A stretch of 32,000 nucleotides of DNA from Halomicrobium mukohataei DSM 12286 (GCF_000023965.1 NC_013202.1:720001-752000); one strand, 5' to 3'; positions 5,667-19,850 are shown, numbered from the stretch's first letter. A program made the numbers and translations. Notes: a model not told the origin generated them from the sequence alone.

Positions 5667-6371
5667 ATGAAGCTCGGTATTCTATCAGACGTTCACGGAA
5701 ACGAGGTCGCACTACAGGCCGTCCTCGCGGACATGCCCAGCGTCGACGGACTGGTGTGTGCCGGGGACGTGGTGGGGTACAATCCGTGGCACGCAGCGTG
5801 TGTCGACGCGATCGCAGCGCCAGAGAGCGGGCCGATCGCAGACAGCGACGCCGCGTTGCTCGACGGAACGGTCCCGACGGTACAGGGCAACCACGACCGG
5901 GCCGTCGCGACGGACCACGCCCCACGCTTCAACCACATGGCGGCGGCCGCCGTCGACCACGCCCGCGACCAGCTGACCGACGACCAGCTGGCGTGGCTCG
6001 ACGGCTTGCCGACAGAGCGCCGCGTGCTCGACGGGCGAGTGAAGATCGTCCACGGCCACCCGGACGACCCCGACCACTACACCCGGCCGGGTGAGTTCGG
6101 GCCGGACCTGCTGGGAGACGAGGACGCGCTGATCATGGGCCACACCCACGTCCAGCACCACGAACGCTACGACGACGGGATCGTCCTGAACCCCGGGAGC
6201 GTCGGCCAGCCACGGGACGACGACCCGACGGCGGCCTACGCCGTGCTCGACGTGGCCGAGGGGACCGTCGAGGAGCGACGCGTCGACTACGACACGGACG
6301 CGGTCATCCGGGCAGTCGAGGACGCCGGGCTACCGCGACAGATCGGGTTCCGGCTGACACAGGGGCGATAA
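5667..6371 (+). CDS. metallophosphoesterase (YfcE/MJ0936-like calcineurin-fold phosphodiesterase)
   Basis: MKLGILSDVHGN, CAGDVVGY, QGNHD, VHGHPDD and GHTHVQ are the canonical metallophosphoesterase motifs. The ORF track begins at GTG 5661; ATG 5667 is preferred. Confidence 0.8.
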   Translation: MKLGILSDVHGNEVALQAVLADMPSVDGLVCAGDVVGYNPWHAACVDAIAAPESGPIADSDAALLDGTVPTVQGNHDRAVATDHAPRFNHMAAAAVDHARDQLTDDQLAWLDGLPTERRVLDGRVKIVHGHPDDPDHYTRPGEFGPDLLGDEDALIMGHTHVQHHERYDDGIVLNPGSVGQPRDDDPTAAYAVLDVAEGTVEERRVDYDTDAVIRAVEDAGLPRQIGFRLTQGR

Positions 6372-6396
6372 GTCGAAAGTCACACAGCCGACGGCT

Positions 6397-7575
6397 TCAG
6401 AACACGTCCTGAACGAGCGAGAGGGCCTGCTCTCGGTCCGACCACGGGACGAACACGGACACCGAGGTGGCGGAGGTGATCACGTCGTAGAGGTTGATGT
6501 GAGCGTCCGAGAGCGGGTCGATCACGCGCTTGACGATGCCCGGCTGGTTCGGCAGCTCACCGCCCGTGACGCGGACGACGGCGATGTCGTCCTCGACGGT
6601 GACACTGGAGAGGGTGTCGTCGTCGACGACGTGATCGTGCAAGAGCGCCTCCGCGTCGTCGGCGTGGTCGGTGTCGACGTAGAAGGTGATCGAGTCCATC
6701 CCGGAGGAGACGCCGTCGATGTTGATCCCCTCGTCGCCAAGCGCCGTCGAGAGTTCGCCGAGGATGCCCGGACTGTTTCGGATCGCGCGGCCGGCGATAG
6801 TGACACAGCAGAGGCGCTCTTCCTGGAGGTCGATGAGGTTCTGAAATTCGCCCTCGATCGAGGTGCCCCCGGTCAGCAGGTCGCCGTGCTGGTAGTGGAC
6901 GACGCGGACGCCCAGATCGCGGTCCTTGTACGACAGCGCCGAGGGCGCGACGACCTCGGCACCGCGAAAGGAGAGCGAACGCAGTTCGTCGACGGAGATC
7001 TCGCCGACGTTGCGTGCCCCTTCGACGACGCGGGGGTCGCCCGTCATGACGCCTTCCACGTCCGTGACGATGACGACCTCGTCGGCGTCCATGTACTTGC
7101 CCAGCATCACCGCCGAGGTGTCCGAGCCCCCCCGCCCCAGCGTGGTGACGTTGCCCGCGAGGTCCTGTGCGAGAAAGCCCGTGACGACCGGCACCACGTC
7201 CTCCAGCTGGCCGGCCAGCGCGTGAGCCCGCTTGGTCGTCTCCTCGACGTCGACCTCGCCGTACTCGTCGGTGATGATCGGCCAGTGCTCGCTCCCCGGT
7301 TCGAGGAACATCGCCTCGACGCCCCGGGCCGCGAGCGCGCCCTTGAGCATCCGGACGGAGGTGCGCTCGCCCATGCTGACGATCTGTGCGCGGTCCTCGG
7401 GCTCGGCGTCGTACTCGATCTCTTCGAGGAGTTCGTCCGTCGTGTTCCCCATCGCGCTGGCGACGACGGCGACCTCGTGGCCGTTCTCGATGGCCGACGC
7501 GATCGAGTCCGCGGCCCGGTTGATCCGCTCGCCGTTGCCAAGGCTCGTCCCGCCGAACTTGGCGACTACGCGCAT
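6397..7575 (-). CDS. lysC: aspartate kinase
   Basis: 392 aa from the ATG (cat at 7573-7575): MRVVAKFGGTSLGNGERI..., AVVASAMGNTTDEL, GRGGSDTSAV. The C-terminal half resembles tandem ACT regulatory domains. Confidence 0.88.
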   Translation of the reverse strand: MRVVAKFGGTSLGNGERINRAADSIASAIENGHEVAVVASAMGNTTDELLEEIEYDAEPEDRAQIVSMGERTSVRMLKGALAARGVEAMFLEPGSEHWPIITDEYGEVDVEETTKRAHALAGQLEDVVPVVTGFLAQDLAGNVTTLGRGGSDTSAVMLGKYMDADEVVIVTDVEGVMTGDPRVVEGARNVGEISVDELRSLSFRGAEVVAPSALSYKDRDLGVRVVHYQHGDLLTGGTSIEGEFQNLIDLQEERLCCVTIAGRAIRNSPGILGELSTALGDEGINIDGVSSGMDSITFYVDTDHADDAEALLHDHVVDDDTLSSVTVEDDIAVVRVTGGELPNQPGIVKRVIDPLSDAHINLYDVITSATSVSVFVPWSDREQALSLVQDVF

Positions 7576-11207: not shown

Positions 11208-14200
11208 CTACATGAAGTCCGCAATCCCGCTCTGCTTGTTTTTGTCGTTCTCGAACACCCGCTTGATCGACTTGTCGAGGATTTCGAGGCGCTGTTTGGT
11301 GTACTCTCGGCAGTCGAACTCCTCGGCGACCATCGTCGCCGTGTCGATGTACTTGTTGACCGACCCTTCGTGGACCGTGAGGTTGACCCGGCCGCCACAC
11401 TCCCGGCAGTCGCCGGTCAGGGGCATCCGGCGGTACTTCTCGCCGCAGTCGAGACAGCGGACTTCCTGGCGGGAGAAGGCCCGGAGGTTGCCGATCAGGT
11501 CCGGCAGGAAGTGGTACTCGATGATCCGTTCGGCCACGTCGGTCTCGTCGACAGCCCGCAGCGTCCGCGAGAGATCGAGCTGGGCGTCCATCTTGTCGGT
11601 CATCGAACCGAGCGTCTTGTAGGCCGAGAGGTCCGGGCCGAGCGCGATGTCGGTGGTGTCGTGGGTGTGATCGAAGCCGGTGTACTCGTGGTCGGTGCCC
11701 AGCGTCTCCTCGGCGATGGTCATGACGTCCTCGACATCCTCGGGGTCGGCCATCTCGCGGGTGGCCTCGTAGAACTCCCGGGGGTACTCCCGCATGATGT
11801 CCATGTTGTGGGCCTCGTCGTCGATCTCGCTGGGGTCGATGCGGGAGGACATCACCAAGGGTGCGTCCATCCGACCGCCCCGCTGGTTCGGCAGGAACGT
11901 CTTCGAGAAGTTCAGGAGGCCGTCCATCAGCAGCATCACGCAGTCCTCGTCGCCGTCGCACTGGCCGGAGTAGGTGCCCTCGATGGCGACCCGGTGGGTG
12001 TCGGCGACGGTGAGACAGTAGACGTGGTTCGTGTCGCTGTCGACGTACTCGACCGACACCACTTCGTCGAACGGAACGCCGTCGTCGGCACCCGCCGAGG
12101 GCTGTGGGGCATCGCTCGCCGTCATCACGGTCGTCTCGCCGCCGTCGTAGGCCGGGAGTTCGTCGCCGGCCGAGAGTTCGCTGGCCGGTGCTTCTTCGAG
12201 CCCGTCACCGCTCCGCCGGAGCATCGTGTGGTCGGGAGTTACCCGCAGCGAGCGGTCACCGACCTCGATGCGGACCATGTGATCGGGAGCGTGATGTTTC
12301 GAGACCGCCTCGACGGGCTTGCGACACGGGCGACCGTCGGCGTCGACCGAGGGCACCGTGACCTCGCCGTCCAGTTCCTCGACCAGGGTCCCGAAGTCGT
12401 CCTCGCGCGGGTCGTCGAGTCGCTCCTCGACGAGATCGGCGATAGGGCCGTACTGCCAGTCGCCAGCCTCGTCCTCGTACCAGAGTCGCGATTCGGGGTG
12501 GAAGCAGTTGCGGCGCTTGGCGGCGTGGAAGTACGGATGCGCGTACCCGACCGCCGCGGAGGTGAAGCCGACGACGCGCCCGACCGTCGCGGCGCTGGTG
12601 TGGGGTGCCATCCCGAAGACGAGTTCGCCGACGAGGTCCTCGCGGTCGTCGAGTTCGTAGAACCGGTCGAGCCCGTAGTACTGCTCTAAGAGGTCGTCGA
12701 CGAACGCGGCGGTCTGGAGCATGTGCTCGGCCGCGCCGTCGGAGAGCACCACGTCCTGGACTCTGAGCTCGACGAGCTGGTCCTCGTGGCGCAGCGGGTC
12801 GCCGTGGATGTCCGCCTCGTAGCCCAGCCCGCGGAGCTGGTCGACGCTCACGTCGAGTTCCGACGCCCGGACCGCGGTGACCGGCAGGTCCGTCATGTCG
12901 TAGCGGACGGTGCCGTCTTTGAACGCCGACACGTCGTGTTTCGCCCGGAGGATCCCCTTCTCCATCGGTTCGGGAATCTTCTCCTTGGAGGTCAGCCCCT
13001 CGACGCCTTTGACGATGTCGAAGGCCGTCTCGCGTTCGCCGACGGCACCCAGCGCGTCGCGGAACTCCTCGCCGAGGTCGATGGCCTCGTACTGGGTGGG
13101 GTAGGCCATCGTCTCGCAGTGGGCACACTCGGCGCGGCCCGACTCGTCGGGCTCGACCTCCGAGTCGCAGTCGGGACAGACGTAGACGGCGTCGGTGACG
13201 CCGTTGCAGTCCGGACAGCGGCCCCGAAAGGTCTCGGTGCCACAGTCCCGACAGCGGCGGCGACCGACCTCGACCTCGACGAGGCCCTGCTGGTCGTTCA
13301 TCTTCTCGGCGTGTTTGGTGGCGTCGGCGACCGAGCGCTGAGCGCCGCCGGCCTCGTCGATGGGAAACAGCGTGTGGACGGCCGGCGACAGCTCTCGCTC
13401 CTCTGATTTCTCGGGGCGACCCATCCGGTTGCCGATCCGGGTCGGGGCGCGCTCGCGGAGCCGGAAGGGAGCGATCTCGTTGATCGCCTCGATGGCGTTG
13501 TCGCCGTCCGCGTACGTTCGAGCGTGCTCCGAGAGGTCCCCGAGCGACCACTCGCGTTCGAGAGCGGCGTCGAAGCCCAGCGTCCGGACCAGCGGCTCCC
13601 AGTCGGGGACGACGATGGTGTCCTCGCGCTGAGTGTGCTCGACGAGCAGGTGTTCGAGCGTCTGGGCGACGGGCTCGCGGTTCGGGAGGACGAGGTCGCC
13701 GTCGGTGCCCCGGTCGGGCGACGGCGTCGGCGCGACCGCGCCGTCCGTCTCGGCCCTCTCGGCGTCTTCGACGGCGGCCGCCAGCGCGCCGACGGCGTCG
13801 ACGGTCACGTCGTGCCAGCAGTAGGTGTACTTGGGGTGCAGGGGGGCGTCGTAGTCGGTCGCCCACCGCAGCGCCTCCTCGGCAGTCGGATCTGCCAGGT
13901 CGACGTGAACGTCGTCTTGCAGGGCCTGCACGTCGCCACCGGCGTCGTCGAACTCCTGTCGCCACCACTCGACGGTGTAGGAGGCCGGCACGAGCGGGTG
14001 GTTGTTCTCGACGAACTCGCCGTAGTTGACGAGGTACTCGCCCAGATCCAGCACCTTCTCGACGCCGTTGCGGACCTCGATTGCCTCGGCCGGGTCGTCG
14101 ACCCGGCGCACGTCCCCGTTGGCGAGCTTGACCGTCGGCCCCTCGATGGTGTCGACCGGGACCACGCCAGCGGCCTTGCCGGGCCGTTCGGTCTTGATCT

Positions 14201-15329
14201 GGGTGCCGGTCGCGAGGAAGTCGTCGACCAGGTGCATCGTCGCGGGGTGGACGCCGGCAGTCGCGTTGCCGTGGTTGCGCGCCCGGCCGTACCGCAGGCG
14301 AAAGCCACCGGGTTCGCTCGGATGTGAGAAGACCGGTCGGCCGGCGATGAGGTCACGGAGGAACTTCGTACTGGGATCGGCACGCGGCGGGCCGTCGTCC
14401 TCGCTCGTAGAGGTCTCGTCGCCCTCGTCCTCGTCTCCGTCGTCTCCCTCGTCGGCCGCGTCCTCCTCGCCGTCCTCGTCGCCGTCTTTGCCGATCGTTC
14501 CGTCGATGAGGTCTTGCAGCCACGGCCAGTCGACCTCCTCTAAGTTGCGGGTGTAGCGCTGGATCTTCGGAGCCTTCAGCGCGATGCCCTCGGCGGCGAC
14601 GAGACACATCCCACCGCGGGCGGAGTTGGTGTCGACCCGTTCGAGGTCCCGAAAGCCCGAGACCTCCTCGTCGCCGGTCGCCTCGCCGTCCAGCATGATC
14701 GGCATGTGCTCGGCGATGAACTTCGACTCCTTCTCCTTGGGCGAGTACTGGAGGCCCGTCTCCTTGTCGTACAGTTCGATCTCCTCGGCGTAGCGGTTGA
14801 TCTCCTCGTCGCGGGCCTCGTACTCCTCGATGCCCAGCAGCGCGCGAGCGTAGTCGGCCACGAGAACCGAGAGCGCCTGTGCGGTCCCGCCGGCCGAGCG
14901 GATCGGGCCGGCGTAGTAGACGTTGACGAACTCGGTGCCGTCGTCGTTTTCGAGGATCTCGACGCGGTCGATCCCCTCGATCGGTGCGGCGACGACCCCC
15001 TCGGTCAACAGGGCGACGGCCGTTCGAACGGCACCCTCGACCTTGCCGGCCTTGGAGTCGTAGTCCCCGACCTCGCCCTCCACGAAGTCGGAGACCAGCT
15101 CCAGTGCGGCCTCCTCCCTGCTCATCTCGCCTTCGAGTTCGCGGACGCGTTCGGCGACGCCGTCGATCCCGAGGATGTTCTCGACGCGGTCGGCCATGTC
15201 TCTGGCCGTCGGGATCTCGACCTCGGGGACGGGATCGCCGCCGCGTCGCTTGGCCGCCTGGGCCACCTCGAAGGCGTCGTCGAGCTGGGATTCCAGGCGG
15301 TCGAAGTAGCGTTCGTCGACCTCGCGCAT
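11208..15329 (-). CDS. polC: DNA polymerase II (PolD) large subunit DP2, intein-containing precursor
   Basis: 1373 aa: MREVDERYFDRLESQLD..., YYAGPIRSAGGTAQA. Cys-cluster zinc fingers are present (CRDCGTETFRGRCPDC, CPDCDSE...CAHC, CLDCGEKY...CRECGG). The catalytic motif HPYFHAAKRRN/CDGDEDCVMLLMDGLLNFS is interrupted by 182 aa. An acidic insert (GDEDGEEDAADEGDDGDEDEGDE) fits a halophile. Confidence 0.95.
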   Translation of the reverse strand: MREVDERYFDRLESQLDDAFEVAQAAKRRGGDPVPEVEIPTARDMADRVENILGIDGVAERVRELEGEMSREEAALELVSDFVEGEVGDYDSKAGKVEGAVRTAVALLTEGVVAAPIEGIDRVEILENDDGTEFVNVYYAGPIRSAGGTAQALSVLVADYARALLGIEEYEARDEEINRYAEEIELYDKETGLQYSPKEKESKFIAEHMPIMLDGEATGDEEVSGFRDLERVDTNSARGGMCLVAAEGIALKAPKIQRYTRNLEEVDWPWLQDLIDGTIGKDGDEDGEEDAADEGDDGDEDEGDETSTSEDDGPPRADPSTKFLRDLIAGRPVFSHPSEPGGFRLRYGRARNHGNATAGVHPATMHLVDDFLATGTQIKTERPGKAAGVVPVDTIEGPTVKLANGDVRRVDDPAEAIEVRNGVEKVLDLGEYLVNYGEFVENNHPLVPASYTVEWWRQEFDDAGGDVQALQDDVHVDLADPTAEEALRWATDYDAPLHPKYTYCWHDVTVDAVGALAAAVEDAERAETDGAVAPTPSPDRGTDGDLVLPNREPVAQTLEHLLVEHTQREDTIVVPDWEPLVRTLGFDAALEREWSLGDLSEHARTYADGDNAIEAINEIAPFRLRERAPTRIGNRMGRPEKSEERELSPAVHTLFPIDEAGGAQRSVADATKHAEKMNDQQGLVEVEVGRRRCRDCGTETFRGRCPDCNGVTDAVYVCPDCDSEVEPDESGRAECAHCETMAYPTQYEAIDLGEEFRDALGAVGERETAFDIVKGVEGLTSKEKIPEPMEKGILRAKHDVSAFKDGTVRYDMTDLPVTAVRASELDVSVDQLRGLGYEADIHGDPLRHEDQLVELRVQDVVLSDGAAEHMLQTAAFVDDLLEQYYGLDRFYELDDREDLVGELVFGMAPHTSAATVGRVVGFTSAAVGYAHPYFHAAKRRNCFHPESRLWYEDEAGDWQYGPIADLVEERLDDPREDDFGTLVEELDGEVTVPSVDADGRPCRKPVEAVSKHHAPDHMVRIEVGDRSLRVTPDHTMLRRSGDGLEEAPASELSAGDELPAYDGGETTVMTASDAPQPSAGADDGVPFDEVVSVEYVDSDTNHVYCLTVADTHRVAIEGTYSGQCDGDEDCVMLLMDGLLNFSKTFLPNQRGGRMDAPLVMSSRIDPSEIDDEAHNMDIMREYPREFYEATREMADPEDVEDVMTIAEETLGTDHEYTGFDHTHDTTDIALGPDLSAYKTLGSMTDKMDAQLDLSRTLRAVDETDVAERIIEYHFLPDLIGNLRAFSRQEVRCLDCGEKYRRMPLTGDCRECGGRVNLTVHEGSVNKYIDTATMVAEEFDCREYTKQRLEILDKSIKRVFENDKNKQSGIADFM
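11961..12506 (-). mobile_element. 182-aa mini-intein in PolD DP2 (no homing-endonuclease domain)
   Basis: It starts with Cys (tgc, + strand gca at 12504-12506) straight after ...AAKRRN. It ends ...AIEGTYSGQ (cag at 11961-11963) before +1 Cys (11958-11960). Removing it restores AAKRRN-CDGDED. A block-B-like TPDH is present. 182 aa is too short to hold an endonuclease domain. Confidence 0.85.
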
Positions 15330-16292: not shown

Positions 16293-16361
16293 GTCCGGAC
16301 CGACGACGGCGACGGCGAAAAGCGACCCGATTTCGACCGATTGTACACGCGGCCTAAAGCC

Positions 16362-16366
16362 ATATA
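16362..16366 (+). promoter_or_regulatory. TATA-box candidate for the 16393 gene
   Basis: CATATACC is centred about 29 nt upstream of ATG 16393, in the 100-bp divergent intergenic region. Confidence 0.35.
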
Positions 16367-16392: not shown

Positions 16393-17745
16393 ATGTCGAC
16401 AGCTCGCCGGAGGCGCGCCACCGTGCTGGCTCTCGTCGTCGCTCTGCTTGCCGTCCCGATCGCGGGCGGACAGCTCGGCGGGCTGGCACAGGAACAGGTC
16501 GATCCAGACACCGTCGTGCTACAGGTCGAGTTGCAGGCCGACGGCGACGCGTCGTGGGCCGTCCACTACCGGACGCGGCTGGACGACGACAACACGACGG
16601 CCGCCTTCGAGAGCCTGCGAGACGACGTGAGCGACGACCCGACCGCGTACACGGCCGACTTCGGCGACCGCATGAACCGGACGATCGCGACCGCCGAGAA
16701 CGCGACCGGCCGAGAGATGGCGCTTCGGAACCTCACGGTAGCGACCGAGACCGAGGCGCTGCCCCAGGAGTACGGCGTGGTCACCTACCGGTTCGAGTGG
16801 ACGAACTTCGCGGCCGTCGAGGGCGACCAGCTCCGGGCGGGCGACGCGCTGTCGGGCCTGTATCTCGACGAGGAGAGCACGCTGCGGATCGACTGGCCCG
16901 CCGGCTACGAGCGCACGAGCGTCGATCCGTCGCCGACCCGCAGCGACGAGCAGACGGTCGCCTGGGACGGCCGCATCGACTTCGAGAGCGACGAGCCACG
17001 GCTCGTCGTGACCGAATCCGCCGCGGCCGGCGAGACGACGACCGGTGCTGGCGAGGCCGCAGGCGACGCCTGGCTGCTCGTGGCCGCGACGGTGCTCGCG
17101 GCCGGCGGCGTCGTCGCGCTGCTGTGGGCCAACCGCCGGTACGGTATCGCCGGTGGAGCAGCGAGCGACAGCGGGCGGGACGACGGATCGGAGGAGCCGG
17201 CCGAAAGCGGCGGCGAGAGCGCTGGTGAAGCGTCCGACGAGGACGCGGGCGGTGACCCGTCGCCGCCGCCGGAACTGCTGAGCAACGAGGAGCGCGTGCT
17301 CCAGTTGCTCGACGACAGCGGTGGCCGGCTGAAACAACAGGCCATCGCCGAGCGACTCGACTGGACCGCCGCAAAGACCAGTCAGGTGATCGGCGACCTG
17401 CGCGAGGAAGACGAACTGGAGACGTTCCGAATCGGCCGGGAAAACGTCGTCACGCTCCCCGGCGTCGACCTCGCGAGTGACGTGGGCGAGGGCGAGGGCG
17501 AGGGTGAGGGCGAGGGCGAGGGCGAGGGCGAGGGCGAGGGCGAGGGCGAGGGCGAGGGCGAGGGCGAGGGCGAGGGCGAGGGCGAGGGCGAGGGCGAGGG
17601 CGAGGGCGAGGGCGAGGGCGAGGGCGAGGGCGAGGGCGAGGGCGAGGGCGAGGGCGAGGGCGAGGGCGAGGGCGAGGGCGAGGGCGAGGGCGAGGGCGAG
17701 GGCGAGGGCGAGGGCGAGGGCGAGGGCGAGGGCGACGAGCCGTAG
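16393..17745 (+). CDS. membrane-tethered winged-helix transcription regulator with an extracytoplasmic domain and a (Gly-Glu)41 tail (450 aa)
   Basis: An N-terminal RRRR plus hydrophobic segment ([18 protein letters not shown]) precedes an ectodomain of about 230 aa. A second TM ([21 protein letters not shown]) is followed by NRRY and an acidic linker. The wHTH reads [61 protein letters not shown]. The protein ends in (GE)41-GDEP. Confidence 0.8.
17485..17730 (+). repeat. (GGCGAG)41 hexanucleotide microsatellite, in frame, encoding (Gly-Glu)41
   Basis: 41 consecutive 6-nt units counted from the sequence. The only deviation is GGTGAG in unit 4 (T at 17505, synonymous). GGC GAC GAG CCG TAG follows. 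Confidence 0.97.
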
Positions 17746-17877
17746 AACTCCCATATAAACCCATCGACGTTTCGAGCGGGAGAGACGGACGATCAAGCGA
17801 TAGGCCGTCGCAGTCGTGCGGTTTCGATCGCGGTTAATTCGGCTTGATCGTCGGCAATTCGGGATTACGGCCGCCCC

Positions 17878-17884
17878 TTTATAT
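17878..17884 (+). promoter_or_regulatory. TATA-box candidate for the 17914-19500 gene pair
   Basis: TTTATAT is centred 33 nt upstream of ATG 17914. Confidence 0.4.
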
Positions 17885-17913
17885 GCGGTTGCCGACACAA
17901 GGACGGCGTACAG

Positions 17914-18792
17914 ATGCGAGACACCACCACCGTACTGGTCGCAGTCGCACTGGTCGTCGGGAGCCTCGCGGCCGTCCCGATGGCCGGAGTGGCCGCCCAG
18001 ACGACGGAGACAGCGACCGACACGAACAGTCCGACGGCGACCGCGACCGACACCAACGCGACCGCCGCCAACGCGACCGCACCCGGCGAGCAGCTCGCTG
18101 GCGTCGTGAGCGTACAGGGTGCCGAGATCGACGGCGAAGTGGAGACGCGTGCGTACGGCATCCGCGTCGCTCAGTCAGAGAGCAACGACTCGAAGGCCGC
18201 CGTCGTCGGCCAGCAGATGGCCGATATCGAACAGCGACTCGACGACCTCGAACAGCGCCGAGAGACGCTGACGGCGGCGCGTGAGAACGGCTCGATGAGC
18301 GAAGGGCAGTACCGCGCCCGGATGGCGCGACTGGCCGCCGAGACCCGCACGGCCGAGCGGCTCGCGAACCAGAGCAACGAGACGGCACAGACACTCCCCG
18401 CAGAGACCCTCGAAGCCAACGGCGTCAATGCGACGGCGATCCGGACGCTGAGCGATCGGGCCAACGAGCTACGGGGGCCGGAAGTGGCCGCGATCGCCCG
18501 CTCGATCGGCGGCGCGGGGACCGGTAACGGCTTCGGTCCGGCGGCGGCCGGTGAGCGCGGTGCCGAGGCTGGCAACAGAACCGCTGGACAGGACCGCGGT
18601 AGCGACGCCCGAGACGGCGGCAACGAAACGGACGCATCGAACGAACGGCCCACCGCAGACGGTGACGGGGCGACCGGGAGCCAGCCCGAAGACGACGACC
18701 AGCAGTCGACTGACACCGAGACCGACGACAGCGCGTCCGAGGCCGAGGATCAGCGGGGCGGTGGCAACGCGAGCGAGGGGCAGGGTCGATAG
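17914..18792 (+). CDS. secreted protein with a Thr/Asn-rich N-terminal region, a coiled-coil-like core and an acidic tail (292 aa)
   Basis: Signal peptide MRDTTTVLVAVALVVGSLAAVPMAGVAAQ. Next come TETATDTNSPTATATDTNATAANATAP and a helical Arg/Glu/Ala/Leu-rich region (IEQRLDDLEQRRETLTAARENGSMSEGQYRARMARLAAETRTAERLANQ). The C-terminus is Asp/Glu/Gly-rich. Its TAG is immediately followed by the next gene's ATG. Confidence 0.7.
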   Translation: MRDTTTVLVAVALVVGSLAAVPMAGVAAQTTETATDTNSPTATATDTNATAANATAPGEQLAGVVSVQGAEIDGEVETRAYGIRVAQSESNDSKAAVVGQQMADIEQRLDDLEQRRETLTAARENGSMSEGQYRARMARLAAETRTAERLANQSNETAQTLPAETLEANGVNATAIRTLSDRANELRGPEVAAIARSIGGAGTGNGFGPAAAGERGAEAGNRTAGQDRGSDARDGGNETDASNERPTADGDGATGSQPEDDDQQSTDTETDDSASEAEDQRGGGNASEGQGR

Positions 18793-19500
18793 ATGAGAGC
18801 GAGAGCGGCCCTCGCGACGTTGAGCGTGATCGCGCTGGTCCTTGTAGGGAGCGCCGGACCCGCGGCAGCGTCCCACCAGCCGAGCTTCGTCGTCGACCTG
18901 GACGCGAGCGGCGACGCGACGGTGACGATTACGTACACGTACGACCTCGGAGACGACGCCGAACAGGCGGCTTTCGCGGAGCTACGGCGCAACGAGACGG
19001 CGACCGCCGCGTTCGAAGAACGGGTTCACGATCGGTTCGAAGCGGTGGCGAACGCCAGCGAAAACCGGACCGGACGCCGGATGGCGATCGAATCGGCGGC
19101 GGTCGAACTCACCCGAGAGGACGGGACCGGGGTCGTCGAGGTCTCGGTCCAGTGGAGCGGGCTGGCAGCGACGACCGAGAACGGACTGGTCCTCGACGAG
19201 CCGTTCGCCAGTGGTTTCGAGCCCGACCGTGCGTTCGTCGTCGTCCTCCCCGACGGCTACGAGGCGACGACGAGCACGCCCTCGCCCGCAGAGAGCGACG
19301 ACGGGCGACTGGAGTGGGCCGACGGGACGACGCTCGACGACTTCGAGGTCGTCGCGACGGAGACTCCCGCCGACGCCGGTGGGACCGCTGACAGCGACGC
19401 GACGACGGGGGCTGACGGCCCCGGCGTCGGCGTCGTGGGGACGGTCGCGGCACTGGTGGCCGCTGGCGCGCTCGCCGTGCGACGACGCCCGAGAGCGTGA
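18793..19500 (+). CDS. surface protein with a PGF-CTERM-like anchor (PGV variant), paralogous to the ectodomain of the 16393 regulator (235 aa)
   Basis: Signal peptide MRARAALATLSVIALVLVGSAGPAAAS. The C-terminus GPGVGVVGTVAALVAAGALAVRRRPRA has the PGF-CTERM architecture (Pro-Gly-hydrophobic, TM, basic tail). The body aligns with 16393-gene residues ([28 protein letters not shown]; [20 protein letters not shown]; [28 protein letters not shown]). Confidence 0.75.
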   Translation: MRARAALATLSVIALVLVGSAGPAAASHQPSFVVDLDASGDATVTITYTYDLGDDAEQAAFAELRRNETATAAFEERVHDRFEAVANASENRTGRRMAIESAAVELTREDGTGVVEVSVQWSGLAATTENGLVLDEPFASGFEPDRAFVVVLPDGYEATTSTPSPAESDDGRLEWADGTTLDDFEVVATETPADAGGTADSDATTGADGPGVGVVGTVAALVAAGALAVRRRPRA

Positions 19501-19850
19501 GAGGGTCACACACCGATCTCGACTCGGAACCTATTTATATCGAACCTCGGATAGTGGCGAGTACATGAGTCAGACTGCGACCGCTGGCGGACGCGAAGTC
19601 CTCAGCGGCGAGTCTGGCGCTCTTCTTCGACAGCGGCGACGACGACGGGGCCGTTTCTAGGCCCACAATACTTACACTCCCGATTTCCGGTTCGTTCGAC
19701 TCCAAATCACCGACCACCGTCTGTTGGTCGCGTCGTCGCGGCTGTCGTCACCCCGCCTGTGCTCACACGCCTCGTGTGATCGATCCTGCGGACGATGACG
19801 ACGGGTGCGGGCGGCGAAAATCACGGACACGCCACCCAAACACGAAACCC

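Follow-up and report, generated by a model that had tools for sequence, protein, structure and literature searches.

Three adjacent genes encode exported or membrane-anchored proteins

Little is known of how archaea convey signals from the cell surface to transcription, and the only membrane-bound archaeal regulators that we found cited are ArnR and ArnR1 of Sulfolobus. We analysed a stretch of 32,000 nucleotides (nt) of Halomicrobium mukohataei DSM 12286 (NC_013202.1:720001-752000, hereafter the window), in which three consecutive genes encode a membrane-tethered protein with a winged helix-turn-helix (wHTH) domain (gene 1), a secreted glycoprotein (gene 2), and a free paralogue of the exported domain of gene 1 (gene 3) (Table 1). 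The promoter of gene 2 carries an array of direct repeats resembling an operator, and the type of repeat changes across haloarchaea together with the recognition helix of gene 1. Gene 1 is therefore a plausible, and in our view probable, one-component regulator of the operon formed by genes 2 and 3.

Table 1. Features of the locus, with positions in the window or, where a locus label is given, in that locus
Feature	Position	Strand	Basis or remark
TATA-like element CATATA, gene 1 promoter	16361-16366	+	32 nt 5' of ATG
Gene 1, membrane-tethered wHTH protein, HVO_1944 family	16393-17745	+	450 aa open reading frame and Pfam domains
Signal peptide or signal anchor of gene 1, hydrophobic aa 11-29 after RRRR n-region	16423-16479	+	Hydropathy
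DUF7345 ectodomain core, aa 44-172	16522-16908	+	Pfam, 5.7e-35
Second transmembrane helix (TM2), aa 226-244, then basic cytoplasmic NRRY	17068-17124	+	Hydropathy
Acidic low-complexity cytoplasmic linker	17140-17262	+	Length varies; unconserved in homologue alignment
DUF7343 wHTH, aa 295-356, recognition helix WTAAKTSQV	17275-17460	+	Pfam, 2.8e-27
GGCGAG tandem repeat, in-frame, encoding the C-terminal (GE)~42 tail of gene 1	17484-17735	+	Tandem Repeats Finder
Operator-like array, direct repeats, 10-bp period	17820-17869	+	Position weight matrix, pattern search, conservation
TATA box TTTATA of the gene 2-gene 3 operon	17878-17883	+	36 nt 5' of ATG
Gene 2, secreted helical-bundle glycoprotein with disordered acidic tail, HVO_1945 family	17914-18792	+	292 aa open reading frame
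Gene 3, DUF7345 paralogue with signal peptide and PGF-CTERM	18793-19500	+	235 aa open reading frame
PGF-CTERM sorting signal of gene 3, aa 205-232	19405-19488	+	TIGR04126, 28.8 bits (cut-off 24.5)
Imperfect inverted repeat, ~40-70 nt 5' of gene 1 start	L019, L028, L029, L037, L040, L071		e.g., L037 CTTGTGGCCCGCCGGTGGCAACAAG
Small secreted acidic protein	L024 7240-7818, L031 7165-7545, L046 7168-7806, L038 469-1128, L050 2771-3220		3' of TTAATC-type sites

Gene 1 joins an exported domain to a cytoplasmic wHTH domain

We described gene 1 using open reading frame (ORF) calls, Pfam profile scores, hydropathy, and an alignment of homologues. Its start is an invariant methionine across 20 homologues and agrees with the gene call of the identical public genome. 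Hydropathy and Pfam reproduced the architecture given in the original prediction, i.e., two hydrophobic segments, the basic NRRY after the second, an acidic linker, and a wHTH domain. The ectodomain, first put at about 230 amino acids (aa), is shorter: it spans approximately aa 30-225, about 195 aa. The protein scores well above the gathering thresholds of both DUF7345 (PF24036; 120.8 versus 27.5 bits) and DUF7343 (PF24034; 94.8 versus 27.6 bits, covering the full profile, positions 1-62), and there are weak matches to MarR, IclR, and HTH_24 on the DUF7343 stretch. In the alignment, the wHTH is the best-conserved region of the protein, and basic and polar residues of its recognition helix and wing are near-invariant. 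The RRY motif after TM2 recurs in homologues, and TM2 itself contains a Gly-Gly. Two sequons of the ectodomain are conserved: N103-A-T105, with N103 and T105 invariant, and N67-T-T69, with T69 invariant and N67 at least 90% conserved.

The original prediction placed the wHTH inside the cell and the large domain outside, which fits the topology signals. N-glycosylation by AglB takes place on the outer face of the membrane. In Haloferax volcanii, the orthologue of gene 1, HVO_1944, is N-glycosylated in an AglB-dependent manner and has a predicted Sec (SPI) signal (Schulze et al. 2021, PMC8241124). That of gene 2, HVO_1945, is listed in the same study as a "conserved hypothetical protein"; it is an AglB-dependent N-glycoprotein with four N-glycosites, 183 peptide-spectrum matches, and a predicted twin-arginine translocation (Tat) signal. 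Since both are AglB-dependent N-glycoproteins, DUF7345 can be placed outside the cell, a position that has experimental support through HVO_1944 in addition to the hydropathy signals.

The orthology of these genes rests on their surroundings. At the Haloferax locus in our sample (L051), the gene of aIF1/SUI1 comes after genes 1 and 2, and there is no copy of gene 3. In H. volcanii, aIF1 is HVO_1946 (PMC8576121), and gene lengths and order at L051 match those from HVO_1943 to HVO_1946. The synteny with HVO_1946 and the matching lengths and order identify HVO_1944 and HVO_1945 as the orthologues. They form the same conserved pair as in the window, differing from it by the lack of gene 3 at the Haloferax locus.

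Relatives of gene 1 are numerous: more than 1200 are found in databases, nearly all with DUF7345 and DUF7343 and mostly of ~350-400 aa, and a scan of one genome per species found a relative in 389 species. Comparison of the homologue profile with the sequences of the Protein Data Bank (PDB) found no solved relative, only Z-alpha domains at E about 1. Below the curated Pfam cut-offs, there are weak matches to DUF4897 (PF16238; 0.0015 and 0.0099) and to the N-terminal domain of DUF2207 (PF09972; 0.09). DUF4897 is also precomputed on several homologues, where it serves as the UniProt name. These two families of bacterial membrane proteins, which unlike gene 1 lack a wHTH, are probably distant relatives of the exported domain, as judged from these profile matches. 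A DUF2207 protein influences stress tolerance and biofilm in Streptococcus mutans (PMC10457818).

The gene 1 protein of the window ends in a feature that the first description had overlooked, together with the gene 2 promoter and its repeats: a near-perfect repeat of a 6-nt unit (42 copies, 99% matches). Over 6,879 nt, the only difference between the window and GenBank CP045142.1 is a 12-nt indel within this repeat, and the CP045142.1 protein has 446 aa instead of 450, two repeat units fewer. Five short-read contigs stop inside or just past the repeat. This two-unit difference and the contig ends indicate that the repeat is real and variable in length. In the alignment, the homologues lack it and have only short acidic tails. 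One may speculate that a polyanionic (GE)n tail beside a DNA-binding domain might mimic DNA or be autoinhibitory.

Gene 2 and gene 3 encode a secreted glycoprotein and a free copy of the gene 1 ectodomain

Gene 2 starts 168 nt after gene 1. Its product has a signal peptide, a Thr-rich linker, and 10 N-x-S/T sequons, so the secreted protein originally proposed was recovered; the coiled-coil character attributed to it was not. The AlphaFold2 model instead shows a helical bundle at aa 57-198, with a predicted local distance difference test (pLDDT) above 90, followed by a disordered acidic tail. A Foldseek search of the model for relatives in the PDB returned only designed helical bundles (E >0.3). 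The match of gene 2 to DUF7096 (PF23379) is below threshold (20.5 bits, E = 4.7e-4; gathering score 27), and 29 of 36 aligned homologues match this family at E up to 0.01, the best at 2.3e-10. By these profile scores, gene 2 is a divergent and distant relative of DUF7096. Most gene 2 homologues start with MRR(x)T, a possible twin-arginine motif, and Tat export is predicted for HVO_1945. The window protein starts with MRDT (17914-17925) and shares the MRD with its closest relative; the replacement of MRR by MRD may reflect a switched export route.

Gene 3 matches DUF7345 with 81.7 bits (6.8e-23; gathering score 27.5) and aligns with gene 1 by BLASTP over 218 aa (E = 1e-12, 33% identity). In 16 alignment columns, gene 3 proteins and gene 1 ectodomains share a residue that is at least 80% conserved in either group; these columns include the N-x-T sequon region, a W, and the P-x-x-Y and SP motifs. 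The paralogy between the body of gene 3 and the gene 1 ectodomain, initially seen by eye, is thus substantiated. It is nevertheless ancient: gene 1 ectodomains and free gene 3 proteins are reciprocally monophyletic, with mean identities of 58% within the former, 44% within the latter, and 28% between them, and the separate clades and low identity between groups indicate an old duplication.

The stop codon of gene 2 directly abuts the start of gene 3 (TAGATG, 18790-18795), as had been noticed from the outset. At its C-terminus, gene 3 has a PGVG, a hydrophobic helix (GVVGTVAALVAAGALAV), and a final RRRPRA. The early reading of this end as a PGF-CTERM variant with PGVG is upheld by the TIGR04126 score; the consensus among the homologues is PGFG. 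By its C-terminal sequence, gene 3 is a predicted ArtA substrate that would be cleaved and lipid-anchored. The S-layer glycoprotein HVO_2072 has the same tripartite PGF-CTERM signal, but gene 3 differs from it by its PGVG and by a body that is a small DUF7345 domain and not an S-layer protein.

The structural model of gene 3 is very confident (pLDDT >95 for aa 30-190) and consists of a curved antiparallel sheet packed against a long helical hairpin (aa 55-93). Foldseek proposed the FMO bacteriochlorophyll protein with E = 1e-5, yet the template modelling score is 0.25 and the root-mean-square deviation 14 Å, and we rejected this match. We also rejected PA4063, LppM, and ribophorin, whose scores of at most 0.44 reflect a generic resemblance between curved sheets.

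The conserved core is the gene 1-gene 2 pair

We fetched 80 loci out of the 389-species scan (labels starting with L) and located gene 2 and gene 3 in them by tblastn. In 76 of these loci, which come from many genera, gene 2 is no more than 3 kb away from gene 1: it follows gene 1 on the same strand in 66, precedes it in 6, and lies on the opposite strand in the other 4. Only 16 loci have a free copy of the gene 3 type, in every case immediately 3' of gene 2 and on the same strand. The full trio was also found in Natronorubrum, and Halopenitus has genes 2 and 3 as a pair, gene 1 being absent within 5 kb. What is conserved across the loci is the pair of genes 1 and 2, with gene 3 as a lineage-restricted accessory of the gene 2 operon. 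The three-gene cluster of the original prediction does not hold as the conserved unit when co-occurrence is checked. Within the 80 loci, we found no conserved protease gene near gene 1. Neither these loci nor the published synteny analysis revealed a further DNA-binding gene conserved in the neighbourhood.

The pair had been recorded before. S1 Table of PMC8241124 states for HVO_1944/HVO_1945 "gene pairing conserved... no additional clustering" and gives orthologues in 124 and 92 haloarchaeal genomes. The statement that the arrangement has no characterised function therefore needs qualification: the two proteins were already known as a conserved pair of N-glycoproteins. Neither PMC8241124 nor the chromatin immunoprecipitation sequencing (ChIP-seq) study cited below (PMC8406309) proposes a function, a DNA target, or a mechanism for them. 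A literature search found no paper naming DUF7345, DUF7343, DUF7096, PF24036, PF24034, DUF4897, or DUF5667. It suggested CsmR as a membrane-bound match, which we discarded because it is a small, soluble, and unrelated regulator.

A phased array of direct repeats precedes the gene 2 promoter

The array upstream of gene 2 contains two strong units, GCGGTTAATTCG at 17830 (13.5 bits) and CGGCTTGATCGT at 17840 (12.3 bits), flanked by weaker ones. The scores come from a position weight matrix (PWM) built iteratively from 112 sites, whose consensus is C-G-G-y-T-T-A-A-T-C-s-G (repeat unit CGGyTTAATC). The array is the sole pair of PWM sites within the 32 kb window, and a degenerate two-unit pattern matches the window once, against 0 matches expected from shuffles. 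In 955 kb of fetched DNA, counting both strands, the PWM identified 107 site pairs, essentially all of them at the gene 1-gene 2 locus. The null expectation in shuffles and this exclusivity rule out that the array is a chance or low-complexity feature.

The arrangement of the repeats is also conserved. Two to four direct repeats precede gene 2 at almost all loci; of 53 intervals between neighbouring PWM sites, 46 measure 10 bp. The sequence TTAATC is contained in 41 of 70 regions upstream of gene 2, compared with 1 of 76 upstream of gene 1. Counted from the first T of the TATA box, the repeat cores keep the same phase across loci (-24, -34, -44, and -54), and the two strong units of the window are at -44 and -34, the same positions as in other genera. 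The distance between the TATA box and the ATG of gene 2 (35 nt in 27 of 50 loci) suggests that the gene 2-gene 3 mRNA is leaderless. Because gene 3 always directly follows gene 2 on the same strand, it is expected to be co-transcribed from the promoter bearing the array.

The gene 1 promoter is different. An AT-rich box is found at the position of its CATATA in more than 70 orthologous upstream regions, and the 32 nt between this element and the ATG suggest another leaderless mRNA. We scanned the upstream region of gene 1 in the window and found no TTAATC-type array. In Natronomonas, arrays are found 5' of gene 1 as well. In many Haloarculaceae, an imperfect inverted repeat (CTTGTGGCC-N6-GGCAACAAG) lies over the gene 1 promoter; the window does not have it.

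The loci that depart from the usual organisation are informative on what the array is associated with. In L024, L031, and L046, the usual place of gene 2 is taken by a different protein, which is small, secreted, and acidic. Between it and gene 1 lie a site pair in L024 and L031 and two sites with a distance of 21 nt in L046. A protein of the same kind is encoded 5' of gene 1 in L038 and L050, which have gene 2 as well, and there it is preceded by an array. Since the sites adjoin gene 1 even where its neighbour is not gene 2, the array travels with gene 1 and not with gene 2. Lying 3' of these sites, the small protein may be targeted by the regulator, in place of gene 2 or in addition to it. 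It has the N-terminus MNAHKLIAIALAALLVFAGGAAA.PGNAPD, matches no Pfam family, and is unrelated to gene 2. The Halopenitus operon of genes 2 and 3 has the array in front of it; as gene 1 is absent within 5 kb, a factor acting in trans is implied.

Halosimplex pelagicum has a second, longer paralogue of gene 2 (542 aa) after gene 3 (L022, 9099-10727). This paralogue has its own repeat array and TATA box, which indicates that the target gene was duplicated together with its operator.

The recognition helix of gene 1 covaries with the repeat type

At most loci, the recognition helix of gene 1 reads WTxAKTSQV (Q-type). In Natrinema, Haloterrigena, Haloarchaeobius, Haloferax, and Halonotius, it reads AKTSKV (K-type). 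TTAAT units are found in 46 of 55 Q-type loci and in none of the 11 K-type loci, all of which have units of the GTTGAA/GTTAAC type. Two or more units of the latter type are present in 8 of 11 K-type versus 0 of 55 Q-type loci (Fisher 3e-8), a p-value that overstates the evidence because the two classes were set after inspecting the data and the test ignores phylogeny. Such covariation is the pattern that direct read-out by the recognition helix would predict, and the Q or K of the helix is the predicted specificity residue. HVO_1944 exemplifies the second class, with an AKTSKV helix and GTTGAA-type repeats; compared with it, only the window protein has the (GE)n tail.

These results bear on whether gene 1 is the factor that binds the array. 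The repeats might be bound by a regulator encoded elsewhere, with gene 1 being a structural or adhesive glycoprotein whose wHTH serves protein contacts or DNA tethering, and with genes 2 and 3 being merely co-expressed surface components. All three products are indeed exported or anchored, and the two orthologues are abundant glycoproteins. The array of Halopenitus without a nearby gene 1, the gene 1 of L001 without a nearby array, and the binding of a different regulator, CdrS, 5' of HVO_1944 in H. volcanii would also suit this explanation. It accounts poorly, however, for the wHTH being the most conserved part of gene 1 with near-invariant residues for recognition, for the Q/K switch that follows the change in repeat sequence, and for sites that stay with gene 1 where the neighbouring gene is another one. 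Nor is any DNA-binding gene other than gene 1 conserved nearby. We regard it as quite improbable.

CdrS, a regulator of cell division, was mapped by ChIP-seq in H. volcanii, and one of its 18 sites lies at position -72 relative to the point where HVO_1944 transcription starts (Liao et al. 2021, PMC8406309). Upon knock-down of cdrS, the shift in HVO_1944 mRNA is slight and not significant (log2 -0.48, adjusted p 0.31). The site 5' of HVO_1944 hints at a link to cell division.

A candidate membrane-tethered regulator of the gene 2-gene 3 operon

We propose, with moderate confidence, that gene 1 is a membrane-tethered one-component regulator that binds the phased array and controls the secreted gene 2-gene 3 operon. 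The DUF7345 domain would be exported and N-glycosylated, followed by the transmembrane helix, a flexible acidic linker, and the cytoplasmic wHTH. The latter would bind the two to four repeats of 10-bp period as an oligomer, on one face of the DNA, and from there control the transcription of the leaderless mRNA. Archaeal sites upstream of the B recognition element (BRE) and TATA box usually activate (PMC8406309). Since the array sits upstream of BRE/TATA, activation is somewhat more likely than repression. On the outside, the gene 2 protein or its binding partner would be the ligand of DUF7345, so that the promoter would receive feedback from the cell surface. The lipid-anchored gene 3 could hold or titrate the same ligand at the surface. 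The domain make-up, topology signals, glycosylation of the orthologues, paralogy, synteny, and the array with its covariation come from the computations or from published work. In this scheme, we infer the binding of gene 1 to the array, the sign of the regulation, the extracellular contacts, and whether the protein acts tethered or released.

Gene 3 might be foreign to this circuit, being an old duplicate of the ectodomain turned into an independent PGF-CTERM surface protein. Its absence from 64 of the 80 loci and its long independent evolution, attested by the separate clades and the 28% mean identity, are compatible with such a history. On the other hand, the free copy directly follows gene 2 in 16 of 16 loci, and also in Natronorubrum and Halopenitus, is by its position co-transcribed from the array-controlled promoter, and retains the 16 columns conserved with the same residue in both groups. 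That gene 3 is functionally unlinked to the pair thus seems very improbable.

Several observations weigh against the regulator that we propose, besides the overstated p-value of the covariation. What ties the wHTH to the array is the co-occurrence and covariation of sequences. Gene 3 is missing at the 64 loci mentioned above, and so it is not essential to the mechanism. DUF7345 has no informative solved fold relative in the PDB by Foldseek (best template modelling score at most 0.44); as the matches are only weak, the fold does not allow the ligand to be inferred. In L001, gene 1 is present but gene 2 and the array are both absent within 6 kb, so that any target must be elsewhere in the genome. 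This locus (6001-7077) belongs to Halobacteriales archaeon QS_4_62_28, the closest relative in the genome collection (63% identity); there, a DUF7383 gene and a thermosome-like (chaperonin) ORF follow gene 1. Finally, a wHTH held at the membrane must reach the chromosomal DNA, and proteolytic release is equally compatible with the data.

In the latter case, a surface signal would trigger cleavage of the ectodomain and then intramembrane cleavage, e.g., by an M50 site-2 protease, freeing a soluble linker-wHTH fragment to bind the array. This is the logic of SREBP, ATF6, and anti-sigma factor cascades and not that of ToxR-like action at the membrane. The operator evidence fits it equally well, and gene 1 has a long, disordered, and variable linker and a Gly-Gly within TM2. 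No cleavage motif was identified in gene 1, however, and release is unnecessary in ToxR, CadC, and TcpP. The same applies to ArnR (cited in PMC13286277). Haloarchaea do have M50 proteases (HVO_1870 in PMC8241124), but the neighbourhood of gene 1 has no conserved protease gene, neither in the 80 loci nor according to the "no additional clustering" of PMC8241124. Regulated proteolysis is therefore an unlikely alternative to action at the membrane, though less so than binding by another regulator.

Action at the membrane could also be part of something broader, namely a feedback circuit common to the whole class. The wHTH would read the amount or state of the gene 2 glycoprotein through DUF7345, the lipid-anchored gene 3 would tune the set-point as a receptor decoy, and wiring into cell-cycle control through CdrS would couple envelope growth or S-layer status to transcription. 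DUF7343 proteins with different ectodomains would then make up a family of archaeal transmembrane one-component sensors not recognised so far. We advance this extension very tentatively and consider it doubtful.

Analogous regulators and the wider DUF7343 family

In ToxR, TcpP, and CadC, a single transmembrane span joins an extracytoplasmic sensor to a cytoplasmic winged-helix DNA-binding domain. These proteins bind direct repeats 5' of their target promoters while membrane-bound, and ToxR and TcpP have a small extracytoplasmic partner encoded beside them (ToxS and TcpH). Similarly, TM2 of gene 1 divides the ectodomain from the wHTH. The phased array that covaries with the helix would be its candidate binding site. 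The order of the domains is the reverse: ToxR-type proteins have an N-terminal wHTH and a C-terminal sensor, whereas gene 1 has its ectodomain at the N-terminus and the wHTH at the C-terminus. Furthermore, their wHTH is of the OmpR/PhoB type and that of gene 1 is DUF7343/MarR-like, the sensor folds are unrelated, and the basal machinery here is archaeal (TBP/TFB). Membership in the ToxR/CadC family is ruled out by the reversed order and by the lack of any Trans_reg_C match, even at E up to 1. The ToxR/CadC style of the original prediction thus stands for a one-component transmembrane wHTH protein, in agreement with topology and array covariation, but not for the family. The resemblance to ToxR, TcpP, and CadC is an analogy and not homology.

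Within archaea, ArnR and ArnR1 of Sulfolobus acidocaldarius are membrane-bound activators of the archaellum, as cited in PMC13286277. Like ArnR, gene 1 is a membrane-anchored candidate regulator tied to surface genes. Unlike gene 1, ArnR has an N-terminal HTH, C-terminal transmembrane helices, and no large ectodomain, and it comes from a different phylum. Among the Pfam domains of gene 1, we found no sequence relation of ArnR to DUF7343 or DUF7345.

The wHTH of gene 1 is found in a much larger set of proteins. A search with this 76-aa domain alone returned 1694 clusters (50% identity, E up to 1e-3), and in nearly all of the best 150 of these, the domain is C-terminal in proteins of 340-460 aa. 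One of them (P0438) has a Tat signal, six FG-GAP repeats (a propeller), a transmembrane helix, and DUF7343 with the recognition helix WSQTKTSNVV. In two others (P0441 and P0423), DUF7343 is at the C-terminus after other ectodomains without family assignment. As DUF7343 follows different ectodomains, the design of an exported domain, a transmembrane helix, and a C-terminal wHTH has been reused. The distribution of these architectures suggests a wider family of archaeal one-component transmembrane sensors built on DUF7343. A further candidate may be HVO_0306, which is annotated like HVO_1944 and belongs to a conserved gene cluster, where it lies 5' of the glycoprotein gene HVO_0307.

The three DUF families were catalogued and the conserved glycoprotein pair was known before this study. 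This study adds the predicted operator and its covariation with the helix, the receptor paralogue as an accessory, and the modular family of DUF7343 proteins. Hundreds of haloarchaeal species have the module, among them the genetic model H. volcanii, and the predicted DNA target, specificity residue, and regulated operon make the hypothesis directly testable. If these predictions fail, a widespread pair of surface glycoproteins needs another explanation.

Other features of the window

Upstream of the three genes, on the minus strand (11208-15329), the gene of the large subunit of DNA polymerase II (PolD DP2) contains an intein: in the identical public gene call, from which we read the domains, Pfam Intein_splicing lies between two PolC_DP2_cat segments. 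Downstream, the region between gene 3 and argG (19531-19660) has a TATA-like TTTATA (19531-19536) ~20 nt 5' of an ATG at 19557. This ATG opens a short Arg-rich ORF that is uncalled in the public annotation and may be a small ORF or the start of a non-coding transcript.

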